Below are positions 1,125-22,424 of a stretch of 64,000 bases of DNA, piece after piece. The stretch covers positions 203,821 to 267,820 of the forward strand of contig JBFWLW010000004.1 in the NCBI GenBank assembly GCA_050251945.1. Direction: 5' to 3'. Source of the stretch: Deferribacterales bacterium. GTDB taxonomy: Bacteria; Chrysiogenota; Deferribacteres; Deferribacterales; Geovibrionaceae. Under the pieces are notes generated by a model that was given only the letters and a program-made list of their open reading frames with translations, did not search any database and was not told the origin of the DNA. How positions within the stretch are numbered: position 1 is the stretch's first letter; each line of letters opens with the position of its first letter. Position numbers and translations under genes: made by a program.

Positions 1125-2516
1125 TTACCACATGGCGAGAATCCACTCTCTGTCTTTTTTATACTCCATGTCGGTGAAAAGTACATTAGCCATCTCTTCC
1201 GCAAGCCAGACAGCGCCGTTGTAACCCACTTTTGGGTGGCGGTAGTAACCTGCTCTGTCGTACACGGGGAAGCCCACTCTTACCATGGGAATATTGTTGT
1301 CCACCGGTATGTAGCGTCCTTTGGAGTGACCGAGGATGAGGTCAATCTCAAGCCCTCTGTTTTTTATTCTGTCTTCAAGTTCCCAGAGGTCGGCATTAGT
1401 TATGACCTCCATGTCAAACTCCGCGTGTTCTTTGATAGCGAGCAGACGCGGGTCTTTGGCATAGTTGGGGTTCTCGTCGCCTATCAGCAGAAGAACGGGT
1501 TTCATGAAGAGGTCGAGGCAGAACTCCGCAAGACCGATGGCAAGATCCGGATGTCCGTATATTGCAACCTTTTTGTCTGCGAAGAACATGTGTGCGAGAT
1601 CCTGAAGCGCGTCGATAGCTTTTCCGCGTTCACGCACCAGCGATTCGGGTATGGGTTTTCCGGTGAGTTTTGAAACGTTCTTAAGGAACGTGTCCGTGTT
1701 TCTGATGCCGATAGGCGTCGGACCTATTATCGTGGGTATCTCAAACTTGTCGCGGAGGTATTCCGCGGCTTTTCCGCCTTCGTATTTGTTCAGCGCGATT
1801 GTGCCGATGGCGTTTGCGGTACCCTGCATATCTTCAATTGTCGTGTTGCCGTGGGAGACAGCGCTCTTGTCGGGCATAAGGGGAGAGTCGAAATTCTCTA
1901 TCTCGAAAAGGACGGTGGCATCCACATCCATCATTTTAAGCAGGTGTTTCAGTTCCTTAACGTCGCCCGGATCGACCCAGCCGGTGATAAGGTTCAGCTT
2001 GCCGTTGCACTCGTCAGTTTTAGCCGCGAAGTGTTTAATAAAGGCTGTGACCGCAGCGTCGTAGCCGGACGTCTGGGAACCTTTGAAACTGGGCGTATGC
2101 ACGGGGATAAGGTGAACTTCCCTGTCGGCATATTTAGTCGCCAGAATAGTCTTTTTAAGTTTTCGCACAACACCCTCAACGTCGTCACCGATGATCTCTG
2201 TTGAACAGGTGGTGATGATGGGTACGACTTTGACGTGGGGGTAGCGCTCGAGAAGAACGTCAACCGCTCCCTCGATACGGTGTACCGCGCCGAGCACCGC
2301 CGCATCTTCGTGAAGTGAAGAGGATGCGATGTCAAAGTTTTCGTTAAGATGCTGTGAGAACAGCAGACGGACAAACATAACACAGCCCTGTCCGCCGTGA
2401 ACTATTGCTGTGCAATCCTCAATGCCTATGCTGGCGTATTGTGCGCCTGCCGGCTGGCAGGTCACCATAGGGTTGATTATACCTACCCTTTCTTTGCTTT
2501 TTATTTCACATGACAT
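1125..2516 (-). CDS. anfK: Fe-only nitrogenase beta subunit
   Basis: P-cluster Cys motifs TCQPAG, GQGCVMFVRL and IITTCSTEIIGDD; C-terminus EWILAMW; 463 aa. Confidence 0.95.
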   Translation of the reverse strand: MSCEIKSKERVGIINPMVTCQPAGAQYASIGIEDCTAIVHGGQGCVMFVRLLFSQHLNENFDIASSSLHEDAAVLGAVHRIEGAVDVLLERYPHVKVVPIITTCSTEIIGDDVEGVVRKLKKTILATKYADREVHLIPVHTPSFKGSQTSGYDAAVTAFIKHFAAKTDECNGKLNLITGWVDPGDVKELKHLLKMMDVDATVLFEIENFDSPLMPDKSAVSHGNTTIEDMQGTANAIGTIALNKYEGGKAAEYLRDKFEIPTIIGPTPIGIRNTDTFLKNVSKLTGKPIPESLVRERGKAIDALQDLAHMFFADKKVAIYGHPDLAIGLAEFCLDLFMKPVLLLIGDENPNYAKDPRLLAIKEHAEFDMEVITNADLWELEDRIKNRGLEIDLILGHSKGRYIPVDNNIPMVRVGFPVYDRAGYYRHPKVGYNGAVWLAEEMANVLFTDMEYKKDREWILAMW

Positions 2517-2538
2517 AATTAGCTCCTATTAGCTGAAA

Positions 2539-2606
2539 AGATCGCTTCGTCACCTTGTTCCTCGCGAAGACGTCTCTGCGAGGAAGTGAAACTGACGAAG
2601 CAGTCT
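2539..2606. repeat. REP-like inverted doublet, copy 1 (anfG-anfK intergenic)
   Basis: AGATCGCTTCGTCACCTTGTTCCTCGCGAAGAC joined directly to GTCTCTGCGAGGAAG...CTGACGAAGCAGTCT; same unit pair as six other loci. Confidence 0.85.
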
Positions 2607-2613
2607 GATCTTA

Positions 2614-2958
2614 TTAATACAGTTTCACCGTGAGTTCTTCGTTGAGCGAGCCGTGGATAGTAACGTAGTCAATACGCTCTTTCAGCCCGTCCATCATAAC
2701 GGCGATGTCCTCTTTGCCCATTTCGTTCACCCACGGAAACTTGGTCTTAAAACCGTCCGCAAGGAACTTGGCGTCCACCCAGTAGCATTTCAGTTCGGGT
2801 GTGCTGAGATCCGGCTGTTCGCCCAGAAGCATCGTTTTTGTTATCCCGAGTATGCCGTTGTTCTGGTTTTCCCTGTCCCATGCTCTTGAGTGGAACTGCC
2901 AGAGGCACCTTTGCATGATATAGTTTTCAAGAATTGCGATTCTTTCTTTCATTTCCAT
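2614..2958 (-). CDS. anfG: Fe-only nitrogenase delta subunit
   Basis: YIMQRCLWQFHSRAWDRENQN and CYWVDA motifs; ends SLNEELTVKLY; ATG at 2958 with RBS GAGGAG; lies between D and K. Confidence 0.95.
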   Translation of the reverse strand: MEMKERIAILENYIMQRCLWQFHSRAWDRENQNNGILGITKTMLLGEQPDLSTPELKCYWVDAKFLADGFKTKFPWVNEMGKEDIAVMMDGLKERIDYVTIHGSLNEELTVKLY

Positions 2959-2968
2959 GTTGTTCTCC

Positions 2969-5401
<2,433 letters not shown>

Positions 5402-5451: not shown

Positions 5452-5467
5452 AGCAGTATGTGTGCCA
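5452..5467 (-). promoter_or_regulatory. sigma54 -24/-12 promoter of the anf operon
   Basis: Minus strand reads TGGCAC-ACATA-CTGCT, with GG-N10-GC spacing, about 70 nt upstream of anfH. Confidence 0.8.
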
Positions 5468-5840: not shown

Positions 5841-6527
5841 CTAGCGGAGAAGTGCCTCCACCAGAGGCGCCGCAAGTACGTTCACCGCGCCCACAAGTAC
5901 CATAGTGAGACCGGATATGGCACCCACCTCGCTGTCGATCTGGTGCGCTTTCGCGGTTCCGACGGCGTGCGCGCCCATGCCGAAAAGACTGCCTTTGGCT
6001 ATGGTTGACCGCAATGGGAGGGATTTGAGCAGTATTTCGCCTATGGTTGCGCCGAACAGTCCTGTTATTATCACAAACACGGCGGTAAGCCCGGGGACAC
6101 CGCCTATTTCACCTGAAACTATCAGCGCGAAAGGGGTGCTGAGGGAACGGGGCAGAAGACTGATACGGAGCTGGTCGCTGAGTCCGAACATGTCTGCGAG
6201 GAACCAGCTTGAAAGCATGGCGGTCACACTGCCCACCAGTACGCCGCCCATGAGTATGAGCCAGTGTTTCCTTATCAGTTCACGCTGTTCGTATATTGGA
6301 ATGGCAAACGCAACCGTTGCGGGAGCGAGCATAGCGAGCATCCAGTGGGTACTGCTGATGTATTCCCTGTATGGTACCCTGAAAACCAGCACCACGATTA
6401 TGAGCAGGATGGGCGCTGTCATAAGCGGCGATGACCACCACGCATGAAAACGTCGGTTGACCAGTTTTCCCGCATGATAAAGCGCAATGGTGAGCGCCGA
6501 CCAGAATATTATGTGAACGATGTACAT
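5841..6527 (-). CDS. lrgB: LrgB/CidB family membrane protein
   Basis: LAPATVAFAIPIYEQRELI, LLPRSLSTPFA and GMGAHAVGTAKA motifs; multiple transmembrane segments. Confidence 0.9.
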   Translation of the reverse strand: MYIVHIIFWSALTIALYHAGKLVNRRFHAWWSSPLMTAPILLIIVVLVFRVPYREYISSTHWMLAMLAPATVAFAIPIYEQRELIRKHWLILMGGVLVGSVTAMLSSWFLADMFGLSDQLRISLLPRSLSTPFALIVSGEIGGVPGLTAVFVIITGLFGATIGEILLKSLPLRSTIAKGSLFGMGAHAVGTAKAHQIDSEVGAISGLTMVLVGAVNVLAAPLVEALLR

Positions 6528-6538
6528 ATATGTTCTCC

Positions 6539-6940
6539 TTAACCCTGCCCGCGTGCCAGATACCGGTAGACCATGTCCACAAACAGAGCCGTTACCGCCA
6601 TCACTATTGCAGTGCTTAGCAGTATCACAGCAATAATCTTAAATCCCAGAGTGCCGAAAAGCTCAGGATGGTCAAGCACCACGGGAACAGCCGGAACGAA
6701 GAACAGGAGCATTTCGCCAAGAAACCATTTTGCGCCCAGTCGCACGCTGTGGACGCTAATCTGTTTTGTGACGAGAAGCGCCACGACAATAAACAGACCT
6801 ATGATACTTCCCGGAACGCTGATGCCCGTCGCTTTTGCGGCGGCAGTGCCCATGAGCCAGAAGAGCATTATTATGCCTATCTGGGTGAGCATATTTGTGC
6901 GGCAGTGCCTGCGAAGCACTATTGAACCTGTTCTGAACAT
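6539..6940 (-). CDS. lrgA: CidA/LrgA family holin-like protein
   Basis: VPGSIIGL and EMLLFFVPA motifs; adjacent to lrgB. Alternative start at 6892. Confidence 0.88.
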   Translation of the reverse strand: MFRTGSIVLRRHCRTNMLTQIGIIMLFWLMGTAAAKATGISVPGSIIGLFIVVALLVTKQISVHSVRLGAKWFLGEMLLFFVPAVPVVLDHPELFGTLGFKIIAVILLSTAIVMAVTALFVDMVYRYLARGQG

Positions 6941-7043: not shown

Positions 7044-7925
7044 ATGGAGCTTAGAAATATCAGGGCGTTTGTGGAGGTTGTCAGACAGGGCGGATTTTCA
7101 AACGCCGCAAAAAAAGTCTTTGCAACTCAGTCAACCGTGAGCAAGGCTGTGAAACAGCTTGAGGACGAGCTTGGCGTTCTGCTTCTGGACAGGATAGGAC
7201 ACAGCTTTAAGCTGACGCAGGCAGGGGAGGTTGTGTTCAGACGCGGATGCACCATGCTTGATCAGGGCATTGAGATGCAGTCGGAGCTTGAGGAACTGAG
7301 CGGCATGAAGCGCGGCACACTGCGCATGGGTTTTCCGCTTCTGGGGAGCAACACACTTTTCGCGGATATTTTTGCAGTGTTCCGTCAGAAGTACCCTCAT
7401 ATCGAGATACAGATGGTTGAACAGGGCGGAAAAAGACTGGAAGAGATGCTCCTTGCGGGCGAGCTTGATCTTGCCGCGTCGCTTCTGCCTGTGGACAGTG
7501 CCGAACTGGACTGGCAGGAGGTTAGGAGCGAGCCTATGGATCTGCTTGTTGCGGACGATCACCCGCTGGCGGACAGTAAAAAGGTCGGTTTTGCAGACAT
7601 GAAAGAGTTTCCGTTCATACTGTACGCTCAGGGGTTCGCACTCAACCCCATGATACTGGAAGCCTGCAGAAGTAAGGGGTTTTCTCCTGCGATAGCGGCG
7701 CAGTCCAGCCAGATCGAGTTTATCATAGGTCTTGTGGCGGCGAAGCTTGGAATCGCTCTTCTGCCAAGAATGATAGCTGTTCAGCATCCGCACCCGAAGA
7801 CCGTGCTTATCCCCGTGGACAATCCTTCCGTTTTCTGGCGCATGGCTCTGATGTGGAGGAAAGGTGCTTATCTGCCGCCTGCCGCCCGTGCATGGCTTGA
7901 GCTTACGAAAACTCACTGGGGATAA
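7044..7925 (+). CDS. LysR-family regulator (CidR-like)
   Basis: N-terminal HTH FSNAAKKVFATQSTVSKAVKQLEDELG; 293 aa; divergent from lrgAB. Confidence 0.92.
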   Translation: MELRNIRAFVEVVRQGGFSNAAKKVFATQSTVSKAVKQLEDELGVLLLDRIGHSFKLTQAGEVVFRRGCTMLDQGIEMQSELEELSGMKRGTLRMGFPLLGSNTLFADIFAVFRQKYPHIEIQMVEQGGKRLEEMLLAGELDLAASLLPVDSAELDWQEVRSEPMDLLVADDHPLADSKKVGFADMKEFPFILYAQGFALNPMILEACRSKGFSPAIAAQSSQIEFIIGLVAAKLGIALLPRMIAVQHPHPKTVLIPVDNPSVFWRMALMWRKGAYLPPAARAWLELTKTHWG

Positions 7926-8328
7926 GTGTCACTGTCGTATTCCGGTTCCTATTAAGTAATGCAGAATTGGTTATATCTATAGATAAAATATGACTATAAA
8001 AATATATTTTATATTTGGAAGTGCAAAAAATATATTGCATAACCTATTAATACATTACGCTCATATGTTAATAATGCCTACCATTAATAGTTGCGGACAA
8101 ACATTAAATCTTTTCACATGCGTTATACCGGCATCCGTGATTCTCTGGTTTTCGGGTATGAGCAATAGGAAAACACAATATAAATTCTTGACAAATGGTT
8201 GAAATAAATATAACTAAAAATGAAGATAGTTCTTTAATATAAGTAATTCTGAGCATATGCTTTTTTAGTTTAAAAGCGTAACAATTTATTTGTTTTTTTA
8301 TTGGTAATCCACTTTTCAGAGGACTTTT

Positions 8329-9768
8329 ATGTCTAACTTATTGTCTGTTGACCCCGTCAGCCGTATTGAGGGACACATGAGTGTCAGCACGGCTGTTGAA
8401 GGAGGAAGGGTCTCAAAGGTTCGTATTGCCGGAAATATGTACCGCGGGCTTGAAAGACTCCTTTTGAACCGCCATCCTGTGGATTCGGCGCGCATTGCCC
8501 AAAGGGTCTGCGGAGTCTGCCACGAGGTGCACGGCATCTCCTCCATCACTGCATTGGAGCAGATATACAGAGTTGTGCCTCCCCACAACGGGCAGGTTCT
8601 GAGGGATATGATACTCGGACTGCACATCGTTACCGATCACCTTCTCCACTTTTACAATCTCTGTTCCCCCGACTACATAGACTACTCAGCCGCCGCCGGA
8701 TATTCCGGAAGGGATGCCGAAATGAAGAATATATCCGATTGGATAAGTTCTTCCGGCACAAAGTTTGTCATCAACAAGACCCCCGGCGACTACATAAAGG
8801 ACAAAGGAACCGCGAGGCGCTTTGCCCTGCATTATTTTCAGGCGCTTAAAATACGCGCGGAGGCGGCTTCCGGTCTGGCGCTCATCGGCGGAAAGGTTCC
8901 CTTTATCCACGCGCTTTTGCCGGGCGGGATCACAACGGAGATAACTCCCGACACGCTCATGAGATACTACCGAGTTCTTACGGAAACGACGGATTTTGTG
9001 AACAACGCGCTCATCCCCGACGTTATGGAACTTGCGGAGCGTTATCCTGAGTATTTCAAAATCGGCGGCGCATACGATACATTTTACGCGCACGACTCCC
9101 TTAAATATAAGAAAGGATACCTTTTCGCATCCGGTGTCATGATCGGCGGCGAAAAGCGTACTTTTGACTATAAGATGGTGAAGGAGCTTCTGAATTCTTC
9201 CTATTACAATCCCGACGGCAGCCCTAACGAATCCGCAAAGGGCGCATACAGCTGGATAAAGTCACCGCGCTATAACGGGTATCCCCTTGAAACTGGTCCC
9301 ATCGCCCGCGCGGCGTTGTCGAACGATGCAGGTTTCAGACAGCTTATCGCCAGATACGGTCAGAAATCCATCCGTTCATCGGTTATGACGAGACTTCTCG
9401 CCCGCGCATACGAATCGCGCAGAATATGCAACTATCTGTTTGAGCGTTCAGAGGATTTTGTTATAGGCAAACCCACCATAGCCCACGTTGACCTTCAGAA
9501 GAAGCTGACGGGTGAGGGCATCGGTTTTTCACTTGCCGCCCGCGGCGCGCTCATTCACCACATAAAGGCGTATGACGGAAGGGTCACAGATTATAAAATG
9601 ATAGTGCCGTCCACATGGAACTTCGGTCCCACGGCGGCAGGAAAGCACGGTGTTGCGGAGAAGGCGGTTCTTGGAACCCCTGTGCGTTTCGGCGGCGACA
9701 GCGGCTCAATAGAGGTCGGCAGGGTCATAAGAAGTTTTGACCCCTGCACGGCGTGTTCAGTTCATTGA
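8329..9768 (+). CDS. [NiFe]-hydrogenase large subunit, group 1a (HysA)-like, no C-terminal extension
   Basis: SRIEGH, RGLE, L1 motif QRVCGVCHEVH, ARGAL, PSTWN, and L2 motif FDPCTACSVH followed immediately by TGA. Confidence 0.93.
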   Translation: MSNLLSVDPVSRIEGHMSVSTAVEGGRVSKVRIAGNMYRGLERLLLNRHPVDSARIAQRVCGVCHEVHGISSITALEQIYRVVPPHNGQVLRDMILGLHIVTDHLLHFYNLCSPDYIDYSAAAGYSGRDAEMKNISDWISSSGTKFVINKTPGDYIKDKGTARRFALHYFQALKIRAEAASGLALIGGKVPFIHALLPGGITTEITPDTLMRYYRVLTETTDFVNNALIPDVMELAERYPEYFKIGGAYDTFYAHDSLKYKKGYLFASGVMIGGEKRTFDYKMVKELLNSSYYNPDGSPNESAKGAYSWIKSPRYNGYPLETGPIARAALSNDAGFRQLIARYGQKSIRSSVMTRLLARAYESRRICNYLFERSEDFVIGKPTIAHVDLQKKLTGEGIGFSLAARGALIHHIKAYDGRVTDYKMIVPSTWNFGPTAAGKHGVAEKAVLGTPVRFGGDSGSIEVGRVIRSFDPCTACSVH

Positions 9769-9778
9769 GGTGCGAAAG

Positions 9779-10738
9779 ATGCTGAGCAGAAGAGATTTCA
9801 TCAAAAGATGCAGAGATATATCGGTAGCGGTCATCGGAGCGGAAGTTTTTGCTGCGGATATAGCCGAAGGCTTTATGAGGATAGCGGCTTCAAAACGCCC
9901 TCAGATAGTTTTCGTTCAGGGGCAGAGCTGTACGGGCTGTTCCGTCTCCATGACATACGGCAACGAATCGGATTTTATAGATTTTGTGACGAGGCTTGTG
10001 AGGGTGCAGGTGCATCCGAACCTGTCGTTCAGTCAGGGACACGGCTACATACAGCAGCTTGAAGAGGTTACATCCGCAGGCGGTCACATTCTTGTGCTTG
10101 AGGGGAGCATCCCTCAGCGCATGAAAAAGGCATGCCTTCTGGGTGAAAAACCGCTTTATGATGCGCTTAAAAAACACATTCAGAAAGCTTATGCCGTTGT
10201 TGCCTGCGGAACCTGCGCGGTTTCCGGAGGGATACCCGCATCCGGCAGAAACGAGACCGGAGCCATAGACATCGAACAGTATATGCGCCAGTGCGGCATA
10301 AGCAAGCCGCTGATAAAGATTCCCGGCTGTCCGGCACACCCCGACAGGCTCATGGGAACGGTGGCATACATTCTGGGCAGCGGCAAGATGCCTCCCATGA
10401 AGGACGGCGTACCACAGCAGTATTTCGGAAACCTCATCCACAACAACTGCGGGCGATTTCAGTATTTTTCACAGGATATCTACCTTAAAGATTTTGAGAC
10501 CGATAAACACTCCTGTCTTCTGAAAAAAGGATGCAGAGGCACCATAACAAAATCCGACTGCCCCACTAGGCGCTGGAACGGAGGCGTCAGCGTCTGCGTT
10601 GAAAGCAACGCCCCCTGTGTCGGCTGTACGCATAACGGATGGCCTTTCAAAGAGAATATCTATTACGAATCGCGGAACATAGAAGACCTTCCGTGGACAG
10701 ACTTCAAAAAGAACGTGCTGGGGATGGGTAAGAAATGA
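9779..10738 (+). CDS. [NiFe]-hydrogenase small subunit with Tat signal peptide
   Basis: ATG at 9779 after RBS GAGGTG; MLSRRDFIK twin-arginine motif; CTGCS, GTC, PGCP, HNNC, CLLKKGC and [23 protein letters not shown] cluster motifs; no C-terminal TM helix. Confidence 0.93.
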
Positions 10739-12654
10739 TAAACATGGCTAAAAAATACCGCTTATCTCTTAAACACAAGATGGCGATAGCAACCGTTTTG
10801 ATCATTGCGTTCACCATCTTAGGCACCATCATCTTTGAGAATATTAAACTCAGGATGATTGAGAAATCCCTCAACAGATACATGAACTACCTCAAGGACA
10901 TGATATATATGTCCACCTTTGATGCTCTTAAAAAGGGAAACATGATGACGTTCAACAATCTTATTGAGGAGATTGGAAAATATGAGGACGTCACCGAGTT
11001 TTCACTGATAAAGCCTGACGGAACAATCACCTATTCGTCACAGGGTAACCGGGTCAACACAAAAGTGGATACCGCTATCCTTACCGACAGAGAGGACATG
11101 CACCCTGAAGGCGACAACAACGTCTATCTGTTTCCTGTAAAAACCATCGGTTACTGCATGCGCTGTCATACGGAATGGGAAGAAGGCGGAATTAATTCGT
11201 ATTATTACGTTAAACTCAGCAGGAAATCACTGAACAACGTTCAGAACATGTCTATGGTATCGGACATATTCGTGATAATAAGCGGCTGTCTGATGATATT
11301 CATCATATATTTCCTCGTGTCGAAACTTGTCATACGCAACGTCGGCAAACTTCAGGACACTATTGTACAGGCGGCGGAAAACCTTGACCTCAGCCTTGAA
11401 TCGGATATCAGAACCAACGACGAGATGGGCGAGATATCCGACAGGTATAACAAGTTCATGCGCGTTATAGGAAACGATATACTGCATACGTTCAGATCTA
11501 TTTCAAATATGATGGAACAGGCGCTTCCGCTGACGCTGACCACCATGCAGATAAAAGAGATGAACACCGAAACCATGCGTCTTGCCGGAGAGGTTGCGAC
11601 CGCCAGCGAGGAAATAAGCGCTACCGTGCGGGATTCTGCGGAGAACATAAGCGATTCGTCGGTTAAGGCGGAACGAACCCTTGAAATGTCCAAGAAAGGA
11701 CTTGAGGTTATGCTGGAGACCACGGCGATATCAACCGAGGTTGGAAATATAGTCAGTCTGCTCGCAGGGGAAATGAACGAGCTTCTCGGTTCCTCCAAAG
11801 AGGTGGGGGATATCGTTATGGTTATTACCGATATTACGGAGCAGACAAATCTTCTGGCGCTTAACGCCGCCATAGAAGCTGCAAGAGCCGGCGAAGCGGG
11901 ACGCGGATTCTCTGTTGTTGCGGACGAGGTTCGCAAACTGGCAGAGAAAACGAACGAGTCGGCTTCCAACATATCAAGCGTTGTTAAGGCTATGCAGACG
12001 AAGGTTCAGAGCGCAGTCAACAACGCCGATGACGTAATGAAAAAGGTCAGCGTTCAGCTTGAAAGGGTTAACGATGCCAACGATAAATTCATGACAATAC
12101 AGTCTTCCGTGGAAGACCTCAGCGCCAATATGACACACATATCATCTTCCGTTCAGCAGCAGTCTGCGGCAATGACCCAGATAGCGGCGAATATCGACGA
12201 GGTTGCCCGCATGAGCGACGCCAACTCAGGCAGCATAGACGCTATGGTGGGCGGTGTTGAAACGGTTGTGGGGCTTCTTGACGAATCGGAGAAAGAACTT
12301 AAAAAATTCACTCTCCAGTCTGTCGTTCTGCCGGTGATACATGCGAAGGTAAGTCATGTGCTTATGACCAAGAACATATATCACGGAGCGATGTATAAAA
12401 AACCTGTGAGCCTTGATAGTTATGATAACTGTGCTTTCACGGAGTTTTATAAAGGACGCGGTCGTGAGACGTTCGGAAGCGATCCTGAATACAGAGAGAT
12501 AGAGACGGTTCACAGATCCCTGCATGACACTGCGGAAAAGATCCGCGGCAGGATATCCAGAGGGGAGTCTGTATCGGATGATCTGGAGACCCTGCAAAGG
12601 CTTACGGAAAAGCTGGTTTCTCTTATGAACGGATTGATTGATAGATATATGTAA
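10735..12654 (+). CDS. Methyl-accepting chemotaxis protein: TM - periplasmic CxxCH heme-c sensor - TM - HAMP - MCP signal - CZB
   Basis: ATGA overlap with the small-subunit stop; CMRCH at 11155-11169 between two TM helices; [32 protein letters not shown] hairpin; C-terminal H...C...HxxxH CZB ligand pattern. Confidence 0.9.
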
Positions 12655-12663
12655 AGAACTCTA

Positions 12664-12701
12664 AGGGCAGTCGGCAGGAAACACCGATTGCCTTTTTTTT
12701 T
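12664..12701 (+). terminator. Intrinsic terminator closing the hydrogenase-MCP operon
   Basis: AGGGCAGTCGG/CCGATTGCCTT hairpin followed by a T-run. Confidence 0.75.
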
Positions 12702-12704
12702 CAG

Positions 12705-14099
12705 CTAATTATTAGGTTTGTCAATGTTTTTCAGGAGCTTGTGGAGGGTTTGGCGGGTGATGCCCAGAATCCTTGCGGCATCGGTTATATTCCCCTTGCT
12801 GTGGTTTAAGGCGGAGGAGACCAGAATAGATTCCATCTTTTTTATAGTGGGGAAGTCTCCCGCGTAATAAAACGGTTCAAAGAGGTGTTCTTTTGCCCCT
12901 GTACGCGGATTTATATCGTGTCTGCGCATGAAGGATATCATGTCGCGGCTGCCGAGTTTTCTGCCGCGCGTAATCATCGCGAGGTCATTCATTATAGCCT
13001 GTAACTGGCGCACGTTTCCCGGAAAGCTGTAGTTTCTCAGAATATCGCCGATCCCCTGCGGCAGTGCCGCCGCCATCTGACATCCCGATTCCAGAAGCGC
13101 CTTGTTGTAAAAATTCAGCGCCAGAAGCTCTATGTCGTCCTTTCTGTCGCGCAGAGGCGGTATTGTTATGCAGTGGGTTGATATCCGGAAAAGCAGGTCT
13201 TTTCTGAATTTTCCGGCTTTAACGTTGTTTTTAAGGTTAACACTAGTTGCGGCTATGATACGCACGTTGGCTTTGACGTTGCGGTCGGTTCCCAGCGGCA
13301 TGTAGACCTTTTCCTGAAGGAGACGCAGAAGTTTTATTTGCGCAGATTCGTTAAGGTCGCCGATTTCGTCCAGAAAAAGAGTTCCGTTCTCAGCCTCAGC
13401 CACAAGCCCTCTGCGGGTCTTGTCCGCCCCCGTGAAGGCTCCTTTTGCATGACCGAAGAGAGTGTCGGTGAACATGTTGTCGTCCAGACCGGAGATGTTT
13501 ACGGCGACGTAGGGACCTTTCTGCCCGCTTGCCTTATGAACCGCCTCCGCAAAAAGTTCCTTGCCTGTTCCGGTTTCTCCCGTGATAAGAACGGGGAAGG
13601 TACTTTCAGAGACGAAGTTCAGATACCTGAATATTTCAAGCATCTTGCTGTTGCATGTTATTATATTGTCGAAAAAGGAATTGCGTTCGATGTCGCCTAC
13701 GTTTTGTACCGTGGGTTCTGAGCTGTATCTTTTGTAAACCTCAAGCGCTCTGAGTATCACTTCGGCAAAGCTGTCCTTCTCCACAGGTTTGACAACGAAG
13801 CTTACCGCGCCCTTTTGAAGGCATCGCACTGCTGATTCGGTCTCGTTCTTTTCTATCATCATCACAACAGATGTTTGCTGAAACCGATGCGCAATGATGC
13901 CAAGCATTTCTTCACCATTCTGATGCGGCATATTCATATCGAGAAGAATAATGGCAGGATCAATCTTATCAGAGCTTTTAAGAAATTCTCTCGGATCATT
14001 GTAAGTTAGTATGTCTGTCACCCCTAACTGTCTGAGGTAACGGACATACATGTCGGTCAGTTCTTTTTCATCGTCAATTATAACAACTTGTGAGATCAT
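12705..14099 (-). CDS. sigma54-dependent response regulator (REC-AAA+-HTH, NtrC family)
   Basis: IDD...LLDMNMP...VKP receiver, GETGTGKE Walker A, GAFTGA, LFLDEIGD Walker B, Fis-type HTH. Confidence 0.92.
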   Translation of the reverse strand: MISQVVIIDDEKELTDMYVRYLRQLGVTDILTYNDPREFLKSSDKIDPAIILLDMNMPHQNGEEMLGIIAHRFQQTSVVMMIEKNETESAVRCLQKGAVSFVVKPVEKDSFAEVILRALEVYKRYSSEPTVQNVGDIERNSFFDNIITCNSKMLEIFRYLNFVSESTFPVLITGETGTGKELFAEAVHKASGQKGPYVAVNISGLDDNMFTDTLFGHAKGAFTGADKTRRGLVAEAENGTLFLDEIGDLNESAQIKLLRLLQEKVYMPLGTDRNVKANVRIIAATSVNLKNNVKAGKFRKDLLFRISTHCITIPPLRDRKDDIELLALNFYNKALLESGCQMAAALPQGIGDILRNYSFPGNVRQLQAIMNDLAMITRGRKLGSRDMISFMRRHDINPRTGAKEHLFEPFYYAGDFPTIKKMESILVSSALNHSKGNITDAARILGITRQTLHKLLKNIDKPNN

Positions 14100-14914: not shown

Positions 14915-14930
14915 TGGCACTGTTATTGCA
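14915..14930 (+). promoter_or_regulatory. sigma54 -24/-12 promoter of the chemosensory operon
   Basis: TGGCAC-TGTTA-TTGCA, a perfect match to the consensus. Confidence 0.88.
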
Positions 14931-15121
14931 TGGAAATATGGATACTAAATGGAGGGTTTTATTAATAGGCTGTGAACCGGATATTCAAACAGGGTGAATA
15001 AGCAGTTGTAGGCTTTTTTGATATTAATTATTCTATTGTACTTATTTTATAAGGCTGATTAAAAAACCTGTCCGGCATCAAGAGTTTATTTATGAGACCA
15101 CGCGATAATGGAGTCTTATTG

Positions 15122-16336
15122 ATGAGTCTGTTTGACAGAAAAAAACTTGCGCTGCTGGTCATTCTTATAATCATTCAGGCAGCGGTAATTTGCCTTGATA
15201 CCCTGCATATCCGTCTTTTGGCGAGTATCCCTGTGCTTATTCTTACTGCGTTCATGCTGCACGCTGTTGCGAAGGATGCGCTTGAAAACGTGAAGACCGA
15301 CCGCGAAAACAATCTTGTGGGTCAGCTGGAAGTTATAAACAAAGGTCTGGTGCCTGTAAGTTCAATAGTGGCTGATTATTCGTCCATAATAACTGTTTTT
15401 CAGGAACAGATGAAAAAGGTCATTGCCGACAGCGAGGAAGCTAACAATATCATTTCCGGAAATTTCGGCAGGATAGCGGAAAAAGCAACCGAGCAGTCAG
15501 ACGAAGCCGGACGCGCACTTGACAGCTTTACTTCTGAGAAAACCGGGAAGCGGGGCGGTAATTTTGTAGATATCAGCCGTAAAGCTCTGATTTCTGTCAT
15601 AAGTGAACTGGAACAAACGGGAGAATACGCAATAGAAACCAACATCCAGCTTTCGGGTGTTATTGATGAGATACAGGGAATAAAAGAGATAGTTTCCAAT
15701 GTCGAATATATAGCCGATCAGACAAACCTCCTTGCGCTGAACGCCGCTATCGAGGCGGCGCGTGCAGGCGAACACGGCAGAGGCTTTGCCGTTGTTGCCG
15801 ACGAGATACGCAAGCTCTCTGAAAAATCAAATAAATTTGCATATGAAATACGCGTGGCAGTGGACGATATCGCCGGAAAGATAAACCACATACACGATAA
15901 ATCCGTTGAGGATGCGGACAGTATTAAGGTCACATCCGCCAAATCCCATGAAGATGTGGATAACGCACTGAACATTCTGGACAGAGCCATTGAAAATGCC
16001 AATTCCATAATGGCAGGGCTGAAACAAAGCTCTATCAAGCTTGCAGGGGATATCAACGACATGGTGGTCTCCATGCAGTATCAGGACATCAACAGACAGC
16101 GTCTTGAACACGTCATCGACCCCATGGATATCATGAAGAATGATCTCGGAAGGATATCGGTGGGACTGCGCGATGTTTCAAACATGGATTTCAGTTCGGA
16201 GCTTAAGAGTCTGAGTGATCATGTGAAAATGCTCTATACCATGGAATCGGAAAGAAAGGTTATGAAAGACAGGTCGGCAGGACAGGCAGGGGTTATATCC
16301 GCCTCGTCAAGAGACGACAATGTCGAACTATTTTAA
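15122..16336 (+). CDS. Methyl-accepting chemotaxis protein (short N-terminal TM hairpin, C-terminal pentapeptide NVELF)
   Basis: [30 protein letters not shown] signal hairpin; MQYQD motif; ends DDNVELF. Confidence 0.9.
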
Positions 16337-16353
16337 GTCTGCGGGGGATCAAA

Positions 16354-16701
16354 GTGAATATAGAAACAACAGTTAACGACGGCAAAACAGTTATTGATAT
16401 CTCAGGAAACCTGACAGTCAGCTATGTAGTTGAACTGCATTCACATTTACGGGAGGCGCTTCAGGAATCCGATGCTGTGGAGATAAGGATAGGGAAGGTG
16501 GATAATGCCGACCTTACGCTTCTGCAGCTGCTCTGTTCCGCGCACAGGGCTGCGCTTTCCAAAGACAAACGCTTTGATGTCACAGGCAATAAGAACGAGC
16601 TTCTAAGCATGGACTGTTTCGCCGGATTCACCAGAGAAAAAGGCTGTGTGATTGATAAATACAACAACTGCGCACTGGTCAAGGAGAGATCAAATGTCTA
16701 A
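16354..16701 (+). CDS. STAS-domain protein of the chemosensory operon
   Basis: 115 aa; ISGNLTV...VDNADLTLLQLLCSAHR STAS pattern; directly upstream of cheY. Confidence 0.82.
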   Translation: MNIETTVNDGKTVIDISGNLTVSYVVELHSHLREALQESDAVEIRIGKVDNADLTLLQLLCSAHRAALSKDKRFDVTGNKNELLSMDCFAGFTREKGCVIDKYNNCALVKERSNV

Positions 16702-17059
16702 AACAATTCTGTCTGTTGATGATTCCGCCAGCATCCGCCAGATGGTGAAATTCACCCTTGTTAAAGAGGGCTACAACGTCTTGGAGGCGTGCGACGGAAA
16801 GGACGCTCTGGCAAAGACCGCAGGCGTAAAATGCGACATGGTGATAACCGACCTTAACATGCCGAACATGGACGGCATTACACTCATAAAAGAGCTTCGG
16901 CAGAAGCCGGAGTTTCGTTTCGTTCCCATCATAATGCTTACAACCGAATCACAGGATTCAAAAAAACAGGAGGGCAAATCCGCCGGCGCAACCGGATGGA
17001 TAGTTAAGCCGTTCAAACCCGAACAGCTTGTTTCAGTAGCAAAAAAGGTTCTGGGGTAA
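16694..17059 (+). CDS. cheY: Chemotaxis response regulator CheY
   Basis: Single receiver domain: VDDS, ITDLNMPNMDG, MLTTES, WIVKPF. Confidence 0.92.
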   Translation: MSKTILSVDDSASIRQMVKFTLVKEGYNVLEACDGKDALAKTAGVKCDMVITDLNMPNMDGITLIKELRQKPEFRFVPIIMLTTESQDSKKQEGKSAGATGWIVKPFKPEQLVSVAKKVLG

Positions 17060-17062
17060 GAT

Positions 17063-19126
17063 ATGTCATTGGATTCCAACCAGCAGGTATTCATAAATGA
17101 GGCTACGGAGCTTTTGCAGGAGCTTGAGGAGTCCCTTCTGGAGCTTGAAAATACTCCGGACAGCTCAGACCTGATAGCCCGTGTGTTCCGTGCCATGCAC
17201 ACTATAAAAGGTTCCGGCGCAATGTTTGGCTTTGACAATATTGCGTCGCTGGTTCACAGCATCGAAACGGCATACGATATGGTGCGCAATAACACCATGT
17301 GCGTGACAAAGCCGATGCTGGATTATTCGCTGAAAGCGTGCGACATAATCCGCGAGATGCTCGCAGACCCTGATATAAAAGCTGATTCTCCGCTGGCGGT
17401 GGAAATAACAGGTTATTTCAGCCGCGCGGCAAACATACAGGATCAGAAACAGCCTGATGTGCAGCCGGAGAGGGATTGCACCGCCCGGGGGGAGCTGCAC
17501 ACCTTCAGGATAACTTTTAAACCTTCCCTGAACGTCTTCATGAACGGCACCAATCCCGCTCTGCTTCTTAAAGAACTGCGCGAGATGGGTTCCGCAACCA
17601 TTGTCACCCACGTTTCCGATATCCCCGGTTTAGACGAGATTGAACCGGAGAAATGCTATTTATCGTGGGACATAATACTGACAACCGACAAAACAGAGAA
17701 TGACATACTGGACGTTTTTATATTTGTGGAAGACGACGCGGTGATAAACATAAGTGCCGTGGACGAGGCGTTTGACGACCGCGAAAAGAAGCTCGGCGAG
17801 ATTCTTCTGGAGCGCGGATGTCTCACGGAAAGCCAGCTTGGCGATGTTCTGAACGAAAAGAAGCGTCTGGGCGAGATAATGGTCGAAAAAGGGCTTGTCT
17901 CCGCAGAGGCTGTTGACACTGCTCTTATGGAACAGGCACATGTGAAGAACATGCAGGAGAAAAAGGCACACGCTTCGGAGACGGCATCTTCAATCAGGGT
18001 GCCTTCGGAAAGGCTTGATTCTCTGGTGGATCTCGTTGGCGAGCTTGTAACGGTGCAGGCGAGATTAAGTCAGGTTGCGGCGCATAAAAACGATGCGGAT
18101 ATGCTTAAGGTGGCTGAGGAGGTTGAACGCCTCGTCTGGGAACTCAGAGACAACACCATGAGCATCAGGATGCTTGAGATAGGTTCAACTTTCAACAGAT
18201 TTAAGAGACTGGTTCGCGATCTGTCGATTGAACTGGGCAAAGAGATCGAGCTTGTCACTTTCGGCGGCGAGACTGAAATCGACAAGACCGTTATAGAAAA
18301 GCTGGGCGACCCGCTGGTGCATCTTATAAGAAACAGCATTGACCACGGAATCGAAAAGCCGGAGGAGAGGATTGCGGCAGGCAAACCCGCCAAAGGGCAT
18401 ATCACCCTTCAGGCAAGCCATTCCGGCGACAGCGTGCTTATCGAAATAACGGACGACGGCAGAGGAATAAACAGGAAAGCCGTACTTGAAAAAGCAAAGT
18501 CAAAAGGGCTTGTTGCTGAAAATGCGGAGCTTTCCGACAGAGAAATATATGAACTGTTATTCGCTTCGGGTTTTTCAACGGCGGCGAGCGTTTCCAGTGT
18601 TTCCGGAAGGGGCGTGGGGATGGACGTTGTGCGGAGGAACATCGAGGCTTTGCGGGGCGCGATTGAGATAAACAGCTCGGAGGGAGCGGGAACGACAATC
18701 GTTCTTAAACTCCCGCTGACGCTGGCGATCATCGACGGCCTTCTTGTGACCATCGGCGGACAGTTCTTCATACTTCCGCTGTCCATTGTCAACGAGTGCA
18801 TCGAATTCAACCGCTCCGAGAACAAAAGCGGTTCGGGGCGCAAGATTATCATGGTGCGCAACGAACTTGTTCCCTATGTCCCGCTTCGCAGTTTTTTCAA
18901 TATCAAAGGCGATGAACCGGAGATACAGCAGATCGTTATTATCAGCGTCGACGGCAGACGCGTGGGATTTGTTGTGGACAGTGTGGTGGGCGACCACCAG
19001 ACGGTTATCAAATCTCTGGGTAAAGCGTTCAAGGATATCGACTGCATATCCGGCGCATCGGTTCTCGGCGACGGCTCGGTGGCTCTGATCATAGATATTA
19101 TGAAAATCTACAATGATATAGGTTAA
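17063..19126 (+). CDS. cheA: Chemotaxis histidine kinase CheA with a tandem MshEN-like insert
   Basis: Hpt FRAMHTIKGS, LVHLIRNSIDHG, DDGRG, SGRGVGMDVV and a C-terminal CheW domain. Confidence 0.95.
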   Translation: MSLDSNQQVFINEATELLQELEESLLELENTPDSSDLIARVFRAMHTIKGSGAMFGFDNIASLVHSIETAYDMVRNNTMCVTKPMLDYSLKACDIIREMLADPDIKADSPLAVEITGYFSRAANIQDQKQPDVQPERDCTARGELHTFRITFKPSLNVFMNGTNPALLLKELREMGSATIVTHVSDIPGLDEIEPEKCYLSWDIILTTDKTENDILDVFIFVEDDAVINISAVDEAFDDREKKLGEILLERGCLTESQLGDVLNEKKRLGEIMVEKGLVSAEAVDTALMEQAHVKNMQEKKAHASETASSIRVPSERLDSLVDLVGELVTVQARLSQVAAHKNDADMLKVAEEVERLVWELRDNTMSIRMLEIGSTFNRFKRLVRDLSIELGKEIELVTFGGETEIDKTVIEKLGDPLVHLIRNSIDHGIEKPEERIAAGKPAKGHITLQASHSGDSVLIEITDDGRGINRKAVLEKAKSKGLVAENAELSDREIYELLFASGFSTAASVSSVSGRGVGMDVVRRNIEALRGAIEINSSEGAGTTIVLKLPLTLAIIDGLLVTIGGQFFILPLSIVNECIEFNRSENKSGSGRKIIMVRNELVPYVPLRSFFNIKGDEPEIQQIVIISVDGRRVGFVVDSVVGDHQTVIKSLGKAFKDIDCISGASVLGDGSVALIIDIMKIYNDIG

Positions 19127-19138
19127 AAGGAGGGTTTT

Positions 19139-21031
19139 ATGTTTAAAAATCTGAAGATCGGCGTAAAGCTGATGCTCGGGTTCGGTCTTGTCATTGCTCT
19201 TACGCTTATCGTGGGACTTGTGGCATACAACGGACTTAATGTTGTTCTTAACGGCGCAAAATATTCAGACGCTCTGGCAACAATGTCCGGCACTCTGAAA
19301 GACGCCAGGCAGCAGGAGAAAAACTACATAATCAGACACGACGAAGCTGCTGCGGAAAAGGTTTCATCCAGTATTGAAGATATCAGGAAACTGGCTGAGG
19401 AAACAAAAGCATTTTCCAATGAAAAACAGGATGCCGCTGTTGCATCCATAGTCAAAAGCACTGAAGACTATCTGGCAGCCTTCACGGAATATGTGAAAGT
19501 TCAGAAAGACCTTGAAAAAAGCTGGAACGTGATGGCGCAGGACGCCGTAAAGGTTCTGGACAAGCTGAAAGGTCAGAGCGTTGATGCGAAAGTGTCCATG
19601 GATATATGGGCGATACGTTCTCTGGTAAGGGATATCTATTACAACAACCAGCTTGAGAAGGCTTCGGAAGTCAACAGCATCTACGATGATATAGAGCGCA
19701 GATTGACGGAACTTGAAGACAAGTCGGTTCTTGAATCAATAAATTCTTACAGAAATGGGCTTGGCGACGTTATAAACGGCAAAAAGCTTCAGGTTACTCT
19801 CGACGAAAAAATGGTTAATGCCGCACGGGAAGCCGGCGATGCCACAAACAAGGAGAACACAGCCAGCACGGAAGCTATGCTTGCCGCGTTTAAATCCGTC
19901 ACTACTATGATAATTATTATAATCCTCGGTGCCGTGATAATCGGTATTATTGCCGCAATAGTCATAACGAAAGGCATCACAGGACCCGTTTCAAAAGGCG
20001 TCGGTTTTGCGATAGAACTTTCCGGCGGAAATCTGGATGCGAAACTGGATATCGACCAGAAAGATGAGGTCGGTCAGCTTGCCGAAGCACTTAAAAACAT
20101 GGTTGATAAGCTGAGAAGCATCATAACAGACGTGCGCGTATCGGCAGACAACGTTGCCATAGGAAGCCGCGAACTTTCAAGCGCCGCACAGGATATGTCT
20201 CAGGGCGCAACGGAACAGGCGGCAAGTGCGGAAGAAGCCTCTGCATCTATGGAAGAGATGGCATCAAACATCAACCAGAACGCCGACAATGCACTTCAGA
20301 CTGAAAAGATAGCACTTAAAGCGTCCGGCGACGCGAAAGAGGGCGGCGATGCTGTTCAGAAGACCGTAAAAGCTATGAAGGATATAGCCGACAAGATATC
20401 CATCATAGAAGAGATAGCCCGCCAGACAAACCTTCTGGCGCTCAACGCGGCTATCGAAGCGGCAAGAGCCGGCGAACACGGCAAAGGATTCGCCGTTGTG
20501 GCATCCGAGGTTCGCAAACTTGCAGAACGCAGTCAGGAAGCGGCGCGTGAGATAAGCGACCTTTCCTCATCCAGCGTGGACATAGCAGAGAAAGCAGGCG
20601 GACTGCTTATGCAGATACTTCCGGACATCCAGAAAACGTCCGAGCTTGTTCAGGAGATAACTGCATCCAGTGCCGAAATGCGCACAGGCGGCGAGCAGAT
20701 AAACACTGCCATCCAGCAGCTTGATCAGGTGATACAGAAAAATGCGGGCGCATCAGAAGAGATGGCGGCAACTGCGGAAGAACTTTCCAGCCAGTCAGAG
20801 GCGCTTCAGCAGGCTGTTTCGTTCTTTAAAATGAAATCAGACAGCGGTGCGAAAAGTGTTCAGGCTCCGAAAACAGCCAAAAAACCTTCGTCCGCACCCG
20901 TAAAGCATTTTGAAAAACCTGTTTTTCCGCACCACGGCAAGAAAAACGGAGGAAAAGAGGGAGAGGGTATAAACCTCGACATGACCGACGGTAAAAAAGA
21001 CCGCCTCGACACAGATTTTGAAAGCTTCTAA
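19139..21031 (+). CDS. Methyl-accepting chemotaxis protein with helical (HBM-like) periplasmic sensor and pentapeptide DFESF
   Basis: Two TM helices, ARQQEKNY motif, HAMP, signal hairpin; ends DTDFESF. Confidence 0.9.
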
Positions 21032-21042
21032 GGCGGTGTGCA

Positions 21043-21552
21043 ATGGAAGATAGAATTAACGGAAATGACAATATAAGTCAGGTGCTTACGTTCCAACTGG
21101 CGGAAGAGGTATACGGAGTGGACATTATGTCTGTTCGCGAGGTGCTGGATTTTTCCAGTGTTACCAAAGTGCCTCACACCCCCGATTTTATGGTGGGGGT
21201 GATAAACCTGCGCGGGAACGTTGTTCCGGTTGTTGACCTTAAAAAGAAATTCCGTCTGGGCGACACGGAAAGAACAGTAAACACCTGTATCATCATCGTT
21301 GAGGTGGTGATAGACGATGAATCCACCGTACTCGGCGCACTTGCCGATTCCGTTCAGGAGGTCGTCGAGTTTGAACATGAAACCATTGAGGATGCGCCGC
21401 GTATAGGGACGCATCTCAACACAGCCTTCATCGCGGGAATGGCGAAGAAGGACAACGGTTTCGTAATAATTCTTGATGTGAACGCCGTTTTCTCCATGAC
21501 GGAGATAGGAACCTACAACGGCGTTGCGGCAGAGCTTGCCGCGGGACAATAG
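21043..21552 (+). CDS. cheW: CheW coupling protein
   Basis: YGVDIMSVREV and GVINLRGNVVPVVDL motifs. Confidence 0.95.
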   Translation: MEDRINGNDNISQVLTFQLAEEVYGVDIMSVREVLDFSSVTKVPHTPDFMVGVINLRGNVVPVVDLKKKFRLGDTERTVNTCIIIVEVVIDDESTVLGALADSVQEVVEFEHETIEDAPRIGTHLNTAFIAGMAKKDNGFVIILDVNAVFSMTEIGTYNGVAAELAAGQ

Positions 21553-21559
21553 AACGGCA

Positions 21560-22423
21560 ATGGACACCACTGTATATTCTGATGCAGACATCTACGGACA
21601 AAAACTGACATCCGCCGAGTTCACCAGAATACAGGCGTTCATTCATGATAACTGCGGAATAAAACTCCCCGTCACCAAAAAAAACATGGTGGAGGGGAGA
21701 CTCCGCAAACGGCTTAAAACGCTTGGTTTAGGCTCATATACGGAATATCTGTCTTTTGTATTTGAAAGCTCCGATCCGGCTGGAGACGACGAAAAACTGA
21801 GGCTCATTGACGCCATCACTACCAATAAGACGGATTTCTTTCGTGAGCCTAACCATTTTGCCTATCTCACTGAAAAACTGCTTCCGCTTTTTACAGCGGA
21901 GGGCGCCGGAATAAAGCGCTGTCTGAACGTCTGGAGCAGTGCATGTTCCACAGGCGAGGAACCCTATACCCTTGCAATGGTTCTTGCAGAATTTTTCGGT
22001 ATCGACGGCAATTTCCGCGTATATGCCAGCGACATAAACTGCACGGTGCTTGAAAGGGCAGTCAGCGGAATCTATCGCATGGAAAAGATAGCGACTGTGC
22101 CTGCCGACCTTAAAAAAAAGTATCTCATGCGCTCAAAAACCGACAGAACTCTGGTGCGTATAAGACCTGAGCTGCGTGAAAAAGTCTCCTTCGGTCGTCT
22201 GAATCTGATGGACGACGTTTACCGTTTGCCTGTTCAGATGGATATCTCATTCTGTCGTAATGTCATTATATATTTCGACACTGAGACCCAGCAGAATATC
22301 ATAAACAGGATATGCGCCGCCACCGCGCCTGACGGCTATGTTTTTCTTGGTCATTCGGAATCGGTACACGGCATGAAGATAGCCGCCAGACCCATTGCCC
22401 CGACCATACTCAAAAGGATATAA
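21560..22423 (+). CDS. cheR: CheR methyltransferase
   Basis: TTNKTDFFRE, WSSACSTGEEPYT, FCRNVIIYF and LGHSES motifs. Confidence 0.95.
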   Translation: MDTTVYSDADIYGQKLTSAEFTRIQAFIHDNCGIKLPVTKKNMVEGRLRKRLKTLGLGSYTEYLSFVFESSDPAGDDEKLRLIDAITTNKTDFFREPNHFAYLTEKLLPLFTAEGAGIKRCLNVWSSACSTGEEPYTLAMVLAEFFGIDGNFRVYASDINCTVLERAVSGIYRMEKIATVPADLKKKYLMRSKTDRTLVRIRPELREKVSFGRLNLMDDVYRLPVQMDISFCRNVIIYFDTETQQNIINRICAATAPDGYVFLGHSESVHGMKIAARPIAPTILKRI

Positions 22424-22424
22424 A

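Follow-up and report, generated by a model that had tools for sequence, protein, structure and literature searches.

A [NiFe]-hydrogenase encoded with a heme-motif chemoreceptor: a probable periplasmic H2-sensing module in Deferribacterales and other bacteria

Here we describe a three-gene operon that probably encodes an input module for H2 sensing in the periplasm, coupled to chemotaxis. The operon lies in a 64,000-nucleotide stretch of the genome of a Deferribacterales bacterium (GenBank assembly GCA_050251945.1, contig JBFWLW010000004.1, positions 203,821 to 267,820; hereafter referred to as the window), and consists of the genes for a [NiFe]-hydrogenase large subunit, a small subunit with a twin-arginine translocation (Tat) motif, and a methyl-accepting chemotaxis protein (MCP) with a CxxCH heme motif. 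Hydrogenases of this type and the heme-motif sensor domain are mostly found side by side in either direction of search, and the output domain joined to the sensor is exchanged between lineages while the hydrogenase stays. On balance, we lean towards the view that these genes represent an unrecognised class of bacterial H2 receptor, in which an exported, protease-independent [NiFe]-hydrogenase sets the redox and ligation state of a Cache-domain c-type heme and so reports the H2 partial pressure, with chemotaxis, two-component and cyclic di-GMP (c-di-GMP) outputs. The pairing of hydrogenase and heme receptor is most likely an undescribed route of H2 sensing outside the cytoplasm.

H2 is one of the main currencies exchanged in anaerobic communities, and we know of no account of how motile bacteria locate it. 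The known H2 sensors, which belong to [NiFe] group 2b, are cytoplasmic transcription switches. In the HydDB scheme, MCP-linked sensors appear only in [FeFe] group C2 and no periplasmic sensor is listed (PMC5037454); its table agrees with a preliminary description of the present locus, which was made from the sequence and named the cytoplasmic groups 2b and 2c as the sensory [NiFe]-hydrogenases and [FeFe] group C as the home of the MCP-linked ones. A neighbourhood-mining paper lists MCPsignal among the clusters near [NiFe]-hydrogenases, with no comment (PMC12727194). The only report of H2 taxis that we found concerns the methanogen Methanococcus (PMC3817446). No description of a hydrogenase–heme–chemoreceptor pairing was found in the literature searched, and a prior description may exist elsewhere.

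The operon comprises three same-strand open reading frames (ORFs) between a LysR-type regulator gene (7044–7925) and a convergent sigma-54 response-regulator gene (12705–14099), with the following features.

7926–8328, + strand: upstream intergenic region, AT-rich, a probable promoter region (sequence reading)
8329–9768, + strand: [NiFe]-hydrogenase large subunit, 479 residues (PF00374, E = 1e-91)
9779–10738, + strand: hydrogenase small subunit, 319 residues (PF01058, Oxidored_q6, and PF14720, NiFe_hyd_SSU_C)
10735–12654, + strand: methyl-accepting chemotaxis protein, 639 residues (Pfam; AlphaFold2 (AF2) model)
12663–12701, + strand: intrinsic terminator that closes the operon between the convergent genes (fold energy, U-run)

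The large- and small-subunit genes are separated by 10 nucleotides (nt) (9769–9778). The ATG of the small subunit at 9779 is preceded by a Shine–Dalgarno sequence (GAGGTG) 6 nt upstream, and direct reading of the sequence shows that its stop codon overlaps the start of the MCP gene as ATGA (10735–10738). The terminator is formed by a 12-bp hairpin (12663–12695) followed by a U-run to 12701, with a folding energy of −18.9 kcal/mol (z = −3.96) that was equalled by none of 200 shuffles; the consensus scanner missed it because its loop is 9 nt long. The ORF, sequence and fold analyses thereby confirm the tight operon of the preliminary description. Its statement that the operon has no cytochrome b or c partner, membrane anchor or maturation protease is likewise upheld by the ORFs of the window and their Pfam matches, in which no cytochrome, membrane-anchor subunit, endopeptidase or hyp gene adjoins the operon. 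No gene for an electron-transfer or anchor partner was found in the window or in the Denitrovibrio acetiphilus locus, and no protease gene lies near the operon in either. The window belongs to a Deferribacteraceae genome put together from landfill metagenomes; its sequence is present in landfill and other metagenome DNA runs, and there were no RNA runs among the matching runs.

The association between the hydrogenase and the sensor was examined in both directions. In the forward direction, large-subunit loci were taken from one genome per species (n = 80), and their ORFs were called and compared with the window proteins. Where the large-subunit gene precedes the small-subunit gene and the large subunit has no C-terminal extension, as in the window, a heme-motif transducer is encoded downstream in 23 of the 27 assessable genome loci; the outcome that the preliminary description had named as damaging to its own proposal, that homologous hydrogenases mostly lack an adjacent MCP, was not what the survey returned. 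By contrast, the sensor domain has no match in any of the 45 ordinary loci with readable gene order, in which the small-subunit gene comes first and the large subunit carries the extension, nor in a further six loci that have the small-subunit gene first and no extension. The downstream protein consists of a transmembrane helix (TM1), about 140 residues with a single CxxCH (nearly always CxRCH), and a second transmembrane helix (TM2), followed by the output part. In distance trees, these hydrogenases form clades A, B and C, each of which is supported (100, 100 and 75%). Clade A, to which the window belongs, includes Deferribacterales, Geobacteraceae/Desulfuromonadales, an Aquificales metagenome-assembled genome (MAG) and Thermodesulfobacteriota, and has the sensor gene at 13 of 13 loci. 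Clade B (Desulfurivibrio, Desulfobulbaceae and Desulfobacula) has it at five of five, in one case with an extra MCP gene between, and clade C (Desulfarculus, Desulfococcaceae, Desulfobacteraceae, Verrucomicrobia and others) at five of the nine assessable loci, two contigs that end too early having been left out of the count.

In the reverse direction, metagenome contigs were searched by the sensor motif alone (D[SA]L[KR]KGNM), which yielded 18 loci, 17 of them assessable. The small-subunit gene lies directly upstream of the sensor in 16 of these 17, and the large-subunit gene does so too where the contig allows. Because this sensor-only search led back to the hydrogenase, the linkage is tight both ways. 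The module spans at least five phyla: Deferribacterota, several orders of Desulfobacterota, Thermodesulfobacteriota, an Aquificales MAG and Verrucomicrobiota. It occurs in cultured strains, including Denitrovibrio acetiphilus DSM 12809, Seleniivibrio woodruffii, Thermosulfurimonas and Desulfurivibrio, so the hypothesis of a hydrogenase–sensor pair is directly testable.

Individual loci vary in their arrangement. At locus L010 (9992–16886), the module stands directly upstream of a Hyb-type uptake operon that encodes a 367-residue Tat small subunit with a C-terminal anchor and a HybA-like ferredoxin with a Tat signal; by their predicted products, sensor-type and respiratory hydrogenases coexist in this one MAG. 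In a Verrucomicrobia MAG (L056, 7068–15777), two large–small pairs are arranged back to back, one on each strand, and one of the pairs is followed by genes for two sensor MCPs in tandem (motifs CLRCH and CIRCH). At L085 (3464–4906), the large-subunit match is split into four frames in an otherwise intact large–small–sensor locus, representing either a pseudogene or an assembly error.

The proteins encoded downstream of the hydrogenase mostly carry MCP signalling domains according to Pfam, and other outputs take their place in some lineages. The sensor is fused to PAS-HisKA-HATPase_c in two Geobacteraceae/Desulfuromonadales loci (L007 and L008), and to PAS-PAS-GGDEF in Denitrovibrio sp. (L012). 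When 1.84 billion representative proteins were searched exhaustively with an HMMER profile, the sensor domain was recovered in 258 clusters. Among the best 150 of these 258, a census by local phmmer with domain queries counted 108 MCPs, 4 histidine kinases and 6 GGDEF proteins, the remainder being fragments. A word-indexed homologue search with the 210-residue sensor alone returned no match, which reflects a limit of that tool, since the exhaustive search recovered the 258 clusters. One input, hydrogenase plus CxxCH domain, thus joins three outputs (MCP, histidine kinase and GGDEF), which is the pattern of a sensory module and not of a respiratory complex; because a conserved input module is joined to interchangeable outputs, the role is better read as sensory than as respiratory.

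Some genomes contain two or three paralogous modules: L001 and L004 lie about 200 kb apart on contig JBFWJS010000002, S. woodruffii has P0002 and L006, and Denitrovibrio sp. has P0017 and P0097/L012. Their transducers differ, comprising an MCP with a chemoreceptor zinc-binding (CZB) domain, a shorter MCP and a PAS-GGDEF protein. This suggests parallel H2 inputs into different behaviours.

The large subunit matches PF00374 (NiFeSe_Hases) with 308.7 bits and has the Ni–Fe ligands C61/C64 (nt 8509–8520) and C473/C476 (nt 9745–9756). Its homologues form about 100 protein clusters at 39–92% identity, mostly of 475–490 residues, with relatives in Deferribacterales (S. woodruffii, 85%; D. acetiphilus, 71%), Desulfuromonas and Thermosulfurimonas/Thermosulfuriphilus. 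The RIEGH, RxCGxC, R405 and DPCxxCxxH elements are invariant among the aligned homologues, as are C61, C64, C473, C476 and H479. Since the catalytic residues and the ligands of three Fe–S clusters are all present, the enzyme should split H2. The protein terminates as …DPCTACSVH, with the stop codon directly after H479. Because the ORF stops at the last Ni-ligand motif, there is no cleavable C-terminal extension; all 11 aligned homologues likewise end at DPCxxCxxH, whereas the usual extension of about 15 residues is found in the next-closest relatives (about 35% identity). An extension-less large subunit is reported to be still able to acquire its cofactor and be matured (PMC7294309).

Among known hydrogenases, the best matches of both subunits (190–240 bits) are Desulfovibrio group 1a/1b [NiFe(Se)] enzymes, and in the PDB the large subunit is matched best by its D. 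vulgaris [NiFeSe] counterpart (241 bits). These enzymes resemble the predicted window enzyme in the Tat small subunit, the three Fe–S clusters and the soluble periplasmic dimer, and differ in having the small-subunit gene first, an extension cleaved by a dedicated protease, and cytochrome c3 as acceptor. Thus, of the group 1 traits, the Tat motif and the best similarity are found, and the extension, protease, partner subunit and gene order are not. Assignment to the [NiFeSe] type was rejected: the NCBIfam models NF033181 and NF045518 gave 399 bits against a cut-off of 600 and 302 against 780, and the Ni-ligand codon is TGC, encoding Cys and not selenocysteine. The label 'group 1a-like' in the preliminary description therefore stands for similarity, but not for the NCBIfam NiFeSe cut-off. 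The neighbour-joining (NJ) trees became unstable once HoxC and HoxG were added, with 4% support for the split of clades A, B and C from the rest and 49% for clade A with HoxC, and we propose neither a single origin of the three clades nor a position for them relative to groups 1 and 2b.

The group 2b sensors HoxBC–HoxJ (Cupriavidus necator) and HupUV resemble the window system in combining a sensor heterodimer with a signal transducer, without an extension or endopeptidase step and without a respiratory partner. HoxC, which also ends …CTVH, is 30.6% identical to the window large subunit over its full length. However, HoxBC is cytoplasmic, lacks a Tat signal, is encoded small subunit first, has the L2 motif DPCMVCTVH and works with a soluble PAS histidine kinase without heme, whereas the window system combines a conserved Tat signal with the opposite gene order, and its transducer is a membrane protein whose heme-motif domain is periplasmic. 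The absence of a large-subunit extension is therefore the group 2b trait that is shared; the absence of a signal peptide and the HoxJ/HupT-type soluble kinase are not, a conserved Tat motif and a transmembrane MCP being found instead. Group 2c, the putative sensors linked to diguanylate cyclases, was also rejected, as the window L2 motif reads RSFDPCTACSVH and the large-subunit gene comes first, as against SFDxCLVCTVH, the hupSL order and a cytosolic location in group 2c (PMC4853749). The 'chemotactic' [FeFe] group C2 is alike in that a hydrogenase is proposed to sense H2 and signal via MCPs (HydDB table, PMC5037454), and it is unlike in belonging to an unrelated, cytoplasmic enzyme superfamily with no heme-c receptor domain, and is itself putative.

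These comparisons bear on a respiratory explanation, in which an ordinary uptake hydrogenase feeds a periplasmic cytochrome pool, and the heme MCP is a co-regulated redox- or energy-taxis receptor of the DcrA or GSU0582/GSU0935 kind that reads the pool. The intact catalytic residues and Fe–S ligands fit such an enzyme, its closest solved relatives are respiratory periplasmic group 1 hydrogenases, and redox-responsive heme-c MCP sensors exist without hydrogenases (PMC8396549). Yet the operon contains no cytochrome, HybA/HybB-type or anchor subunit, and its reversed gene order and lost extension are unlike all 45 ordinary loci. Moreover, the sensor family is almost exclusively hydrogenase-adjacent and its outputs swap while the hydrogenase stays, and L010 has a separate Hyb-type enzyme beside the module. 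We therefore consider the respiratory explanation unlikely.

The MCP consists of TM1, a periplasmic heme-motif sensor domain, TM2, a HAMP-like segment, an MCP signalling domain and a CZB domain, of which three are delimited as follows.

10840–11259, + strand: periplasmic sensor domain, residues ~36–175, single-Cache/PDC fold (AF2 model, Foldseek)
11737–12213, + strand: MCP signalling domain, residues 335–493 (PF00015, 150.2 bits against a cut-off of 34.6, E = 7e-44)
12355–12543, + strand: CZB domain, residues 541–603 (PF13682, 30.2 against 29.4 bits)

The CZB match is marginal; an H…C…HRSLH pattern can be read in the translation, and the domain is also present in the closest orthologues. The HAMP domain named in the preliminary description is sub-threshold in the window protein (17.1 bits against a cut-off of 25, E = 0.007); many homologues score above that value. 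In a public gene call (P0121, 624 residues), the MCP begins at Met16 instead of at 10735; we favour the start at 10735 because the basic N-terminus is conserved in homologues. The CMRCH motif occupies residues 141–145 (nt 11155–11169), between hydrophobic segments at residues ~16–35 and 176–198. Given this position, the Lys/Arg-rich N-terminus and the positive-inside rule, the motif should face the periplasm, in agreement with its earlier assignment to the periplasmic domain of the MCP.

In the AF2 model of the sensor (mean predicted local distance difference test (pLDDT) score of 83), the long first helix extends from TM1, another helix and a sheet of five strands come next, and the C-terminal helix runs on into TM2; the CxxCH motif lies in a short helix (141–144) between strands 121–136 and 153–162. 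Foldseek matched the model to the extracytoplasmic PAS/Cache sensors WalK (E = 1e-5), CitA, DctB and KinD, and more weakly to the Geobacter heme-c sensors GSU0935 and GSU0582 (3b42 and 3b47; E ~ 0.01). A comparison by hhalign with Tll0287-like MCP sensors reached a probability of 85%, limited to the 42 columns that surround the heme motif. Both sensor clades invariably have G68, M70, F73, C141, C144, H145 and W148, of which Met70 is encoded at nt 10942–10944, and CxxCH occurs within the first 300 residues in 145 of the 150 best sensor-family representatives. The sCache_heme domain is defined as a Cache fold with a short CXXCH helix inserted between β strands (PMC12889525), and the sensor is accordingly modelled as a predicted c-type heme domain of this topology.

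GSU0582, GSU0935 and the families sCache_heme/Tll0287-like (PF11845) and Mcp40H-20_sensor (PF21563) have in common with the modelled sensor the periplasmic Cache/PDC fold and, between two of its strands, a short helix that bears the single CxxCH. The positions correspond closely, with C140/C143/H144 in GSU0935 and 141/144/145 in the window protein, and with Met60 and Met70, respectively, on the N-terminal helices. The heme-c Cache sensors also cover the same range of outputs (MCP, histidine kinase and GGDEF). They differ in that the sequence similarity is below the Pfam cut-offs (13–18 bits), and known members are not reported beside hydrogenases. In GSU0935, C140 and C143 attach the heme and H144 and Met60 serve as its axial ligands; reduction converts a high-spin His/water form to a low-spin His/Met form, a spin and ligation change that is the proposed signalling step (PMC8396549).

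Such ligand chemistry leaves room for a second alternative, in which the hydrogenase is a reductase that keeps the receptor heme ferrous, while the true signal is another gas (NO, CO or O2) and H2 is merely the reductant. Related sCache_heme domains bind NO (PMC12889525), and GSU0582 and GSU0935 bind NO whether oxidised or reduced, and CO in the reduced state only (PMC8396549). However, a dedicated [NiFe] enzyme would be costly for one heme in anaerobes with reducing periplasms, the loci contain no sign of NO or CO metabolism, and the signal would hinge on H2 availability anyway. We accordingly give this alternative little credence.

The small subunit begins with MLSRRDFIK, the twin-arginine motif SRRDFIK being encoded at nt 9785–9805, and has complete Cys/His ligand sets for three Fe–S clusters, a hydrophilic C-terminal tail and no membrane anchor. 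It aligns with the D. vulgaris HysB precursor from residue 2, signal peptide included (192 bits). All 27 small subunits with a readable N-terminus, out of 30, have a [ST]RRxF[LI]K motif and, after it, a hydrophobic stretch. The small-subunit alignment shows the motif in the other three as well, and it is kept in each of clades A, B and C at identities as low as 33%. The assignment combines motif reading with conservation. To judge from these sequences, a useless signal would have been erased by neutral drift over that identity range. As the CxxCH motif recurs in 145 of 150 sensor representatives and all readable small subunits have the RR motif, neither is a chance occurrence. A cytoplasmic hydrogenase with a vestigial twin-arginine motif, which like group 2b would contact the cytoplasmic part of the transducer while the periplasmic heme domain senses something unrelated, could draw on the missing C-terminal extension, as in HoxC, and on the position of HoxC beside clade A in the crude NJ tree (49% support), but it is highly improbable in view of the RRxF[LI]K motif and hydrophobic stretch in all readable homologues, and of a conserved partner element that is the periplasmic domain whereas the cytoplasmic parts vary (MCP, histidine kinase or GGDEF). 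To our knowledge, HoxB-type sensors have no twin-arginine motif.

Two further features of the small subunits are confined to parts of clade A or to this clade. In three of them (L009, L011 and L013; an Aquificales MAG and Thermodesulfobacteriota), the CxGC of the proximal cluster reads CSGD, the second Cys being replaced by Asp, which suggests an altered proximal Fe–S cluster in the thermophilic branch of clade A. The clade A small subunits also share a hydrophilic C-terminal tail (…E[DV]LxW[ST]x[FM]-K…; 10670–10735 in the window, residues ~298–319), which neither clades B and C nor ordinary enzymes have, and which is a candidate docking element for the sensor.

The reading of the hydrogenase and the heme MCP as an H2 receptor, put forward in the preliminary description, is supported by the linkage (23 of 27 and 16 of 17 loci) and by the swapped outputs. 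On this reading, the three genes would be co-transcribed, and the [NiFe] large subunit would be matured in the cytoplasm without proteolytic processing, since it ends at the last Ni-ligand motif. The pre-assembled dimer of large and small subunits would then be exported via the Tat pathway on the twin-arginine signal of the small subunit. In the periplasm, the dimer would work with the single-Cache sensor of the MCP, which is predicted to carry one covalent c-type heme (C141/C144, with H145 as the proximal ligand), presumably attached by a Ccm-dependent route. Electrons from H2 oxidation may pass through the three Fe–S clusters directly to the receptor heme, and reduction of the heme would alter its spin and ligation, probably via the invariant Met70 on the N-terminal helices continuous with TM1, as in GSU0582 and GSU0935. 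TM2 and the HAMP-like segment would relay the resulting movement to the signalling hairpin of the MCP, from which it would reach CheA and CheY. Because the hydrogenase reaction is reversible, the redox state of the heme could come to equilibrium with the H2/H+ couple and so track the H2 partial pressure. A histidine kinase or a diguanylate cyclase would be driven by this input module in other lineages.

Several observations weigh against this interpretation. Four clade C loci with the large-subunit gene first and no extension (L024, L032, L040 and L050) have unrelated downstream genes. One sensor, in a sensor-PAS-GGDEF-EAL protein (L084, 5890–8566), is encoded beside pyruvate kinase with no hydrogenase within 6 kb upstream. 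The sensor scores below the Pfam gathering thresholds (PF21563, 13.3–18.1 against 27 bits; PF11845, 13.4–16.1 against 24.1 bits), and the profile of its family, compared with the PDB sequences, gave no meaningful match. All catalytic and Fe–S ligands are kept, and the enzyme could thus deliver electrons to soluble periplasmic cytochromes. Finally, electrons delivered to a single heme have nowhere to go until it is re-oxidised, by the back-reaction or by another acceptor. The orphan sensor of L084, the gene of which is apparently frameshifted at about 6975, might pair with a hydrogenase encoded elsewhere.

In the region upstream of the operon (7926–8328), a scan found three sigma-70-like matches at 7980–8075, which is not above chance expectation, and a consensus scan found no sigma-54 promoter. 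Because no sigma-54 promoter lies upstream of the operon, the neighbouring sigma-54 regulator was not assigned as its regulator. A che-type cluster (MCP-STAS-CheY-CheA/W-MCP-CheR-CheD, with CheA and CheW fused; 15092–22958, + strand) begins 2.4 kb downstream of the operon and is preceded by a perfect sigma-54 promoter consensus, TGGCACTGTTATTGCA, at 14915–14930 (+ strand). The target of the NtrC-type sigma-54 response regulator (12705–14099, − strand) may be this cluster and not the hydrogenase operon. The che-cluster neighbourhood is common only to the closest relative, L002, and lies outside the conserved module. On the other side, a NifH-like ORF (4553–5380) and two large ORFs downstream of it (together 1125–5380, − strand) resemble a nifHDK cluster in their translations alone, with a one-mismatch sigma-54 promoter match upstream of the NifH-like ORF (5452–5467, − strand). 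An LrgA/LrgB pair (5841–6940, − strand) separates these genes from the LysR regulator gene.

Sensory hydrogenases and heme-c Cache receptors are already known kinds of protein; what is new in the proposed module is the compartment and the coupling principle. If the H2-receptor reading is correct, the module would be the first dedicated bacterial H2 chemoreceptor and the first case of a sensory hydrogenase at work outside the cytoplasm, and would provide a molecular receptor for H2 taxis. It would also add a class without an entry in the HydDB 2016 table, in which case such genes may at present be counted as respiratory uptake enzymes. More broadly, it would offer a natural case of enzyme-to-receptor electron transfer as a sensing principle, and a compact part for engineered H2 biosensors.

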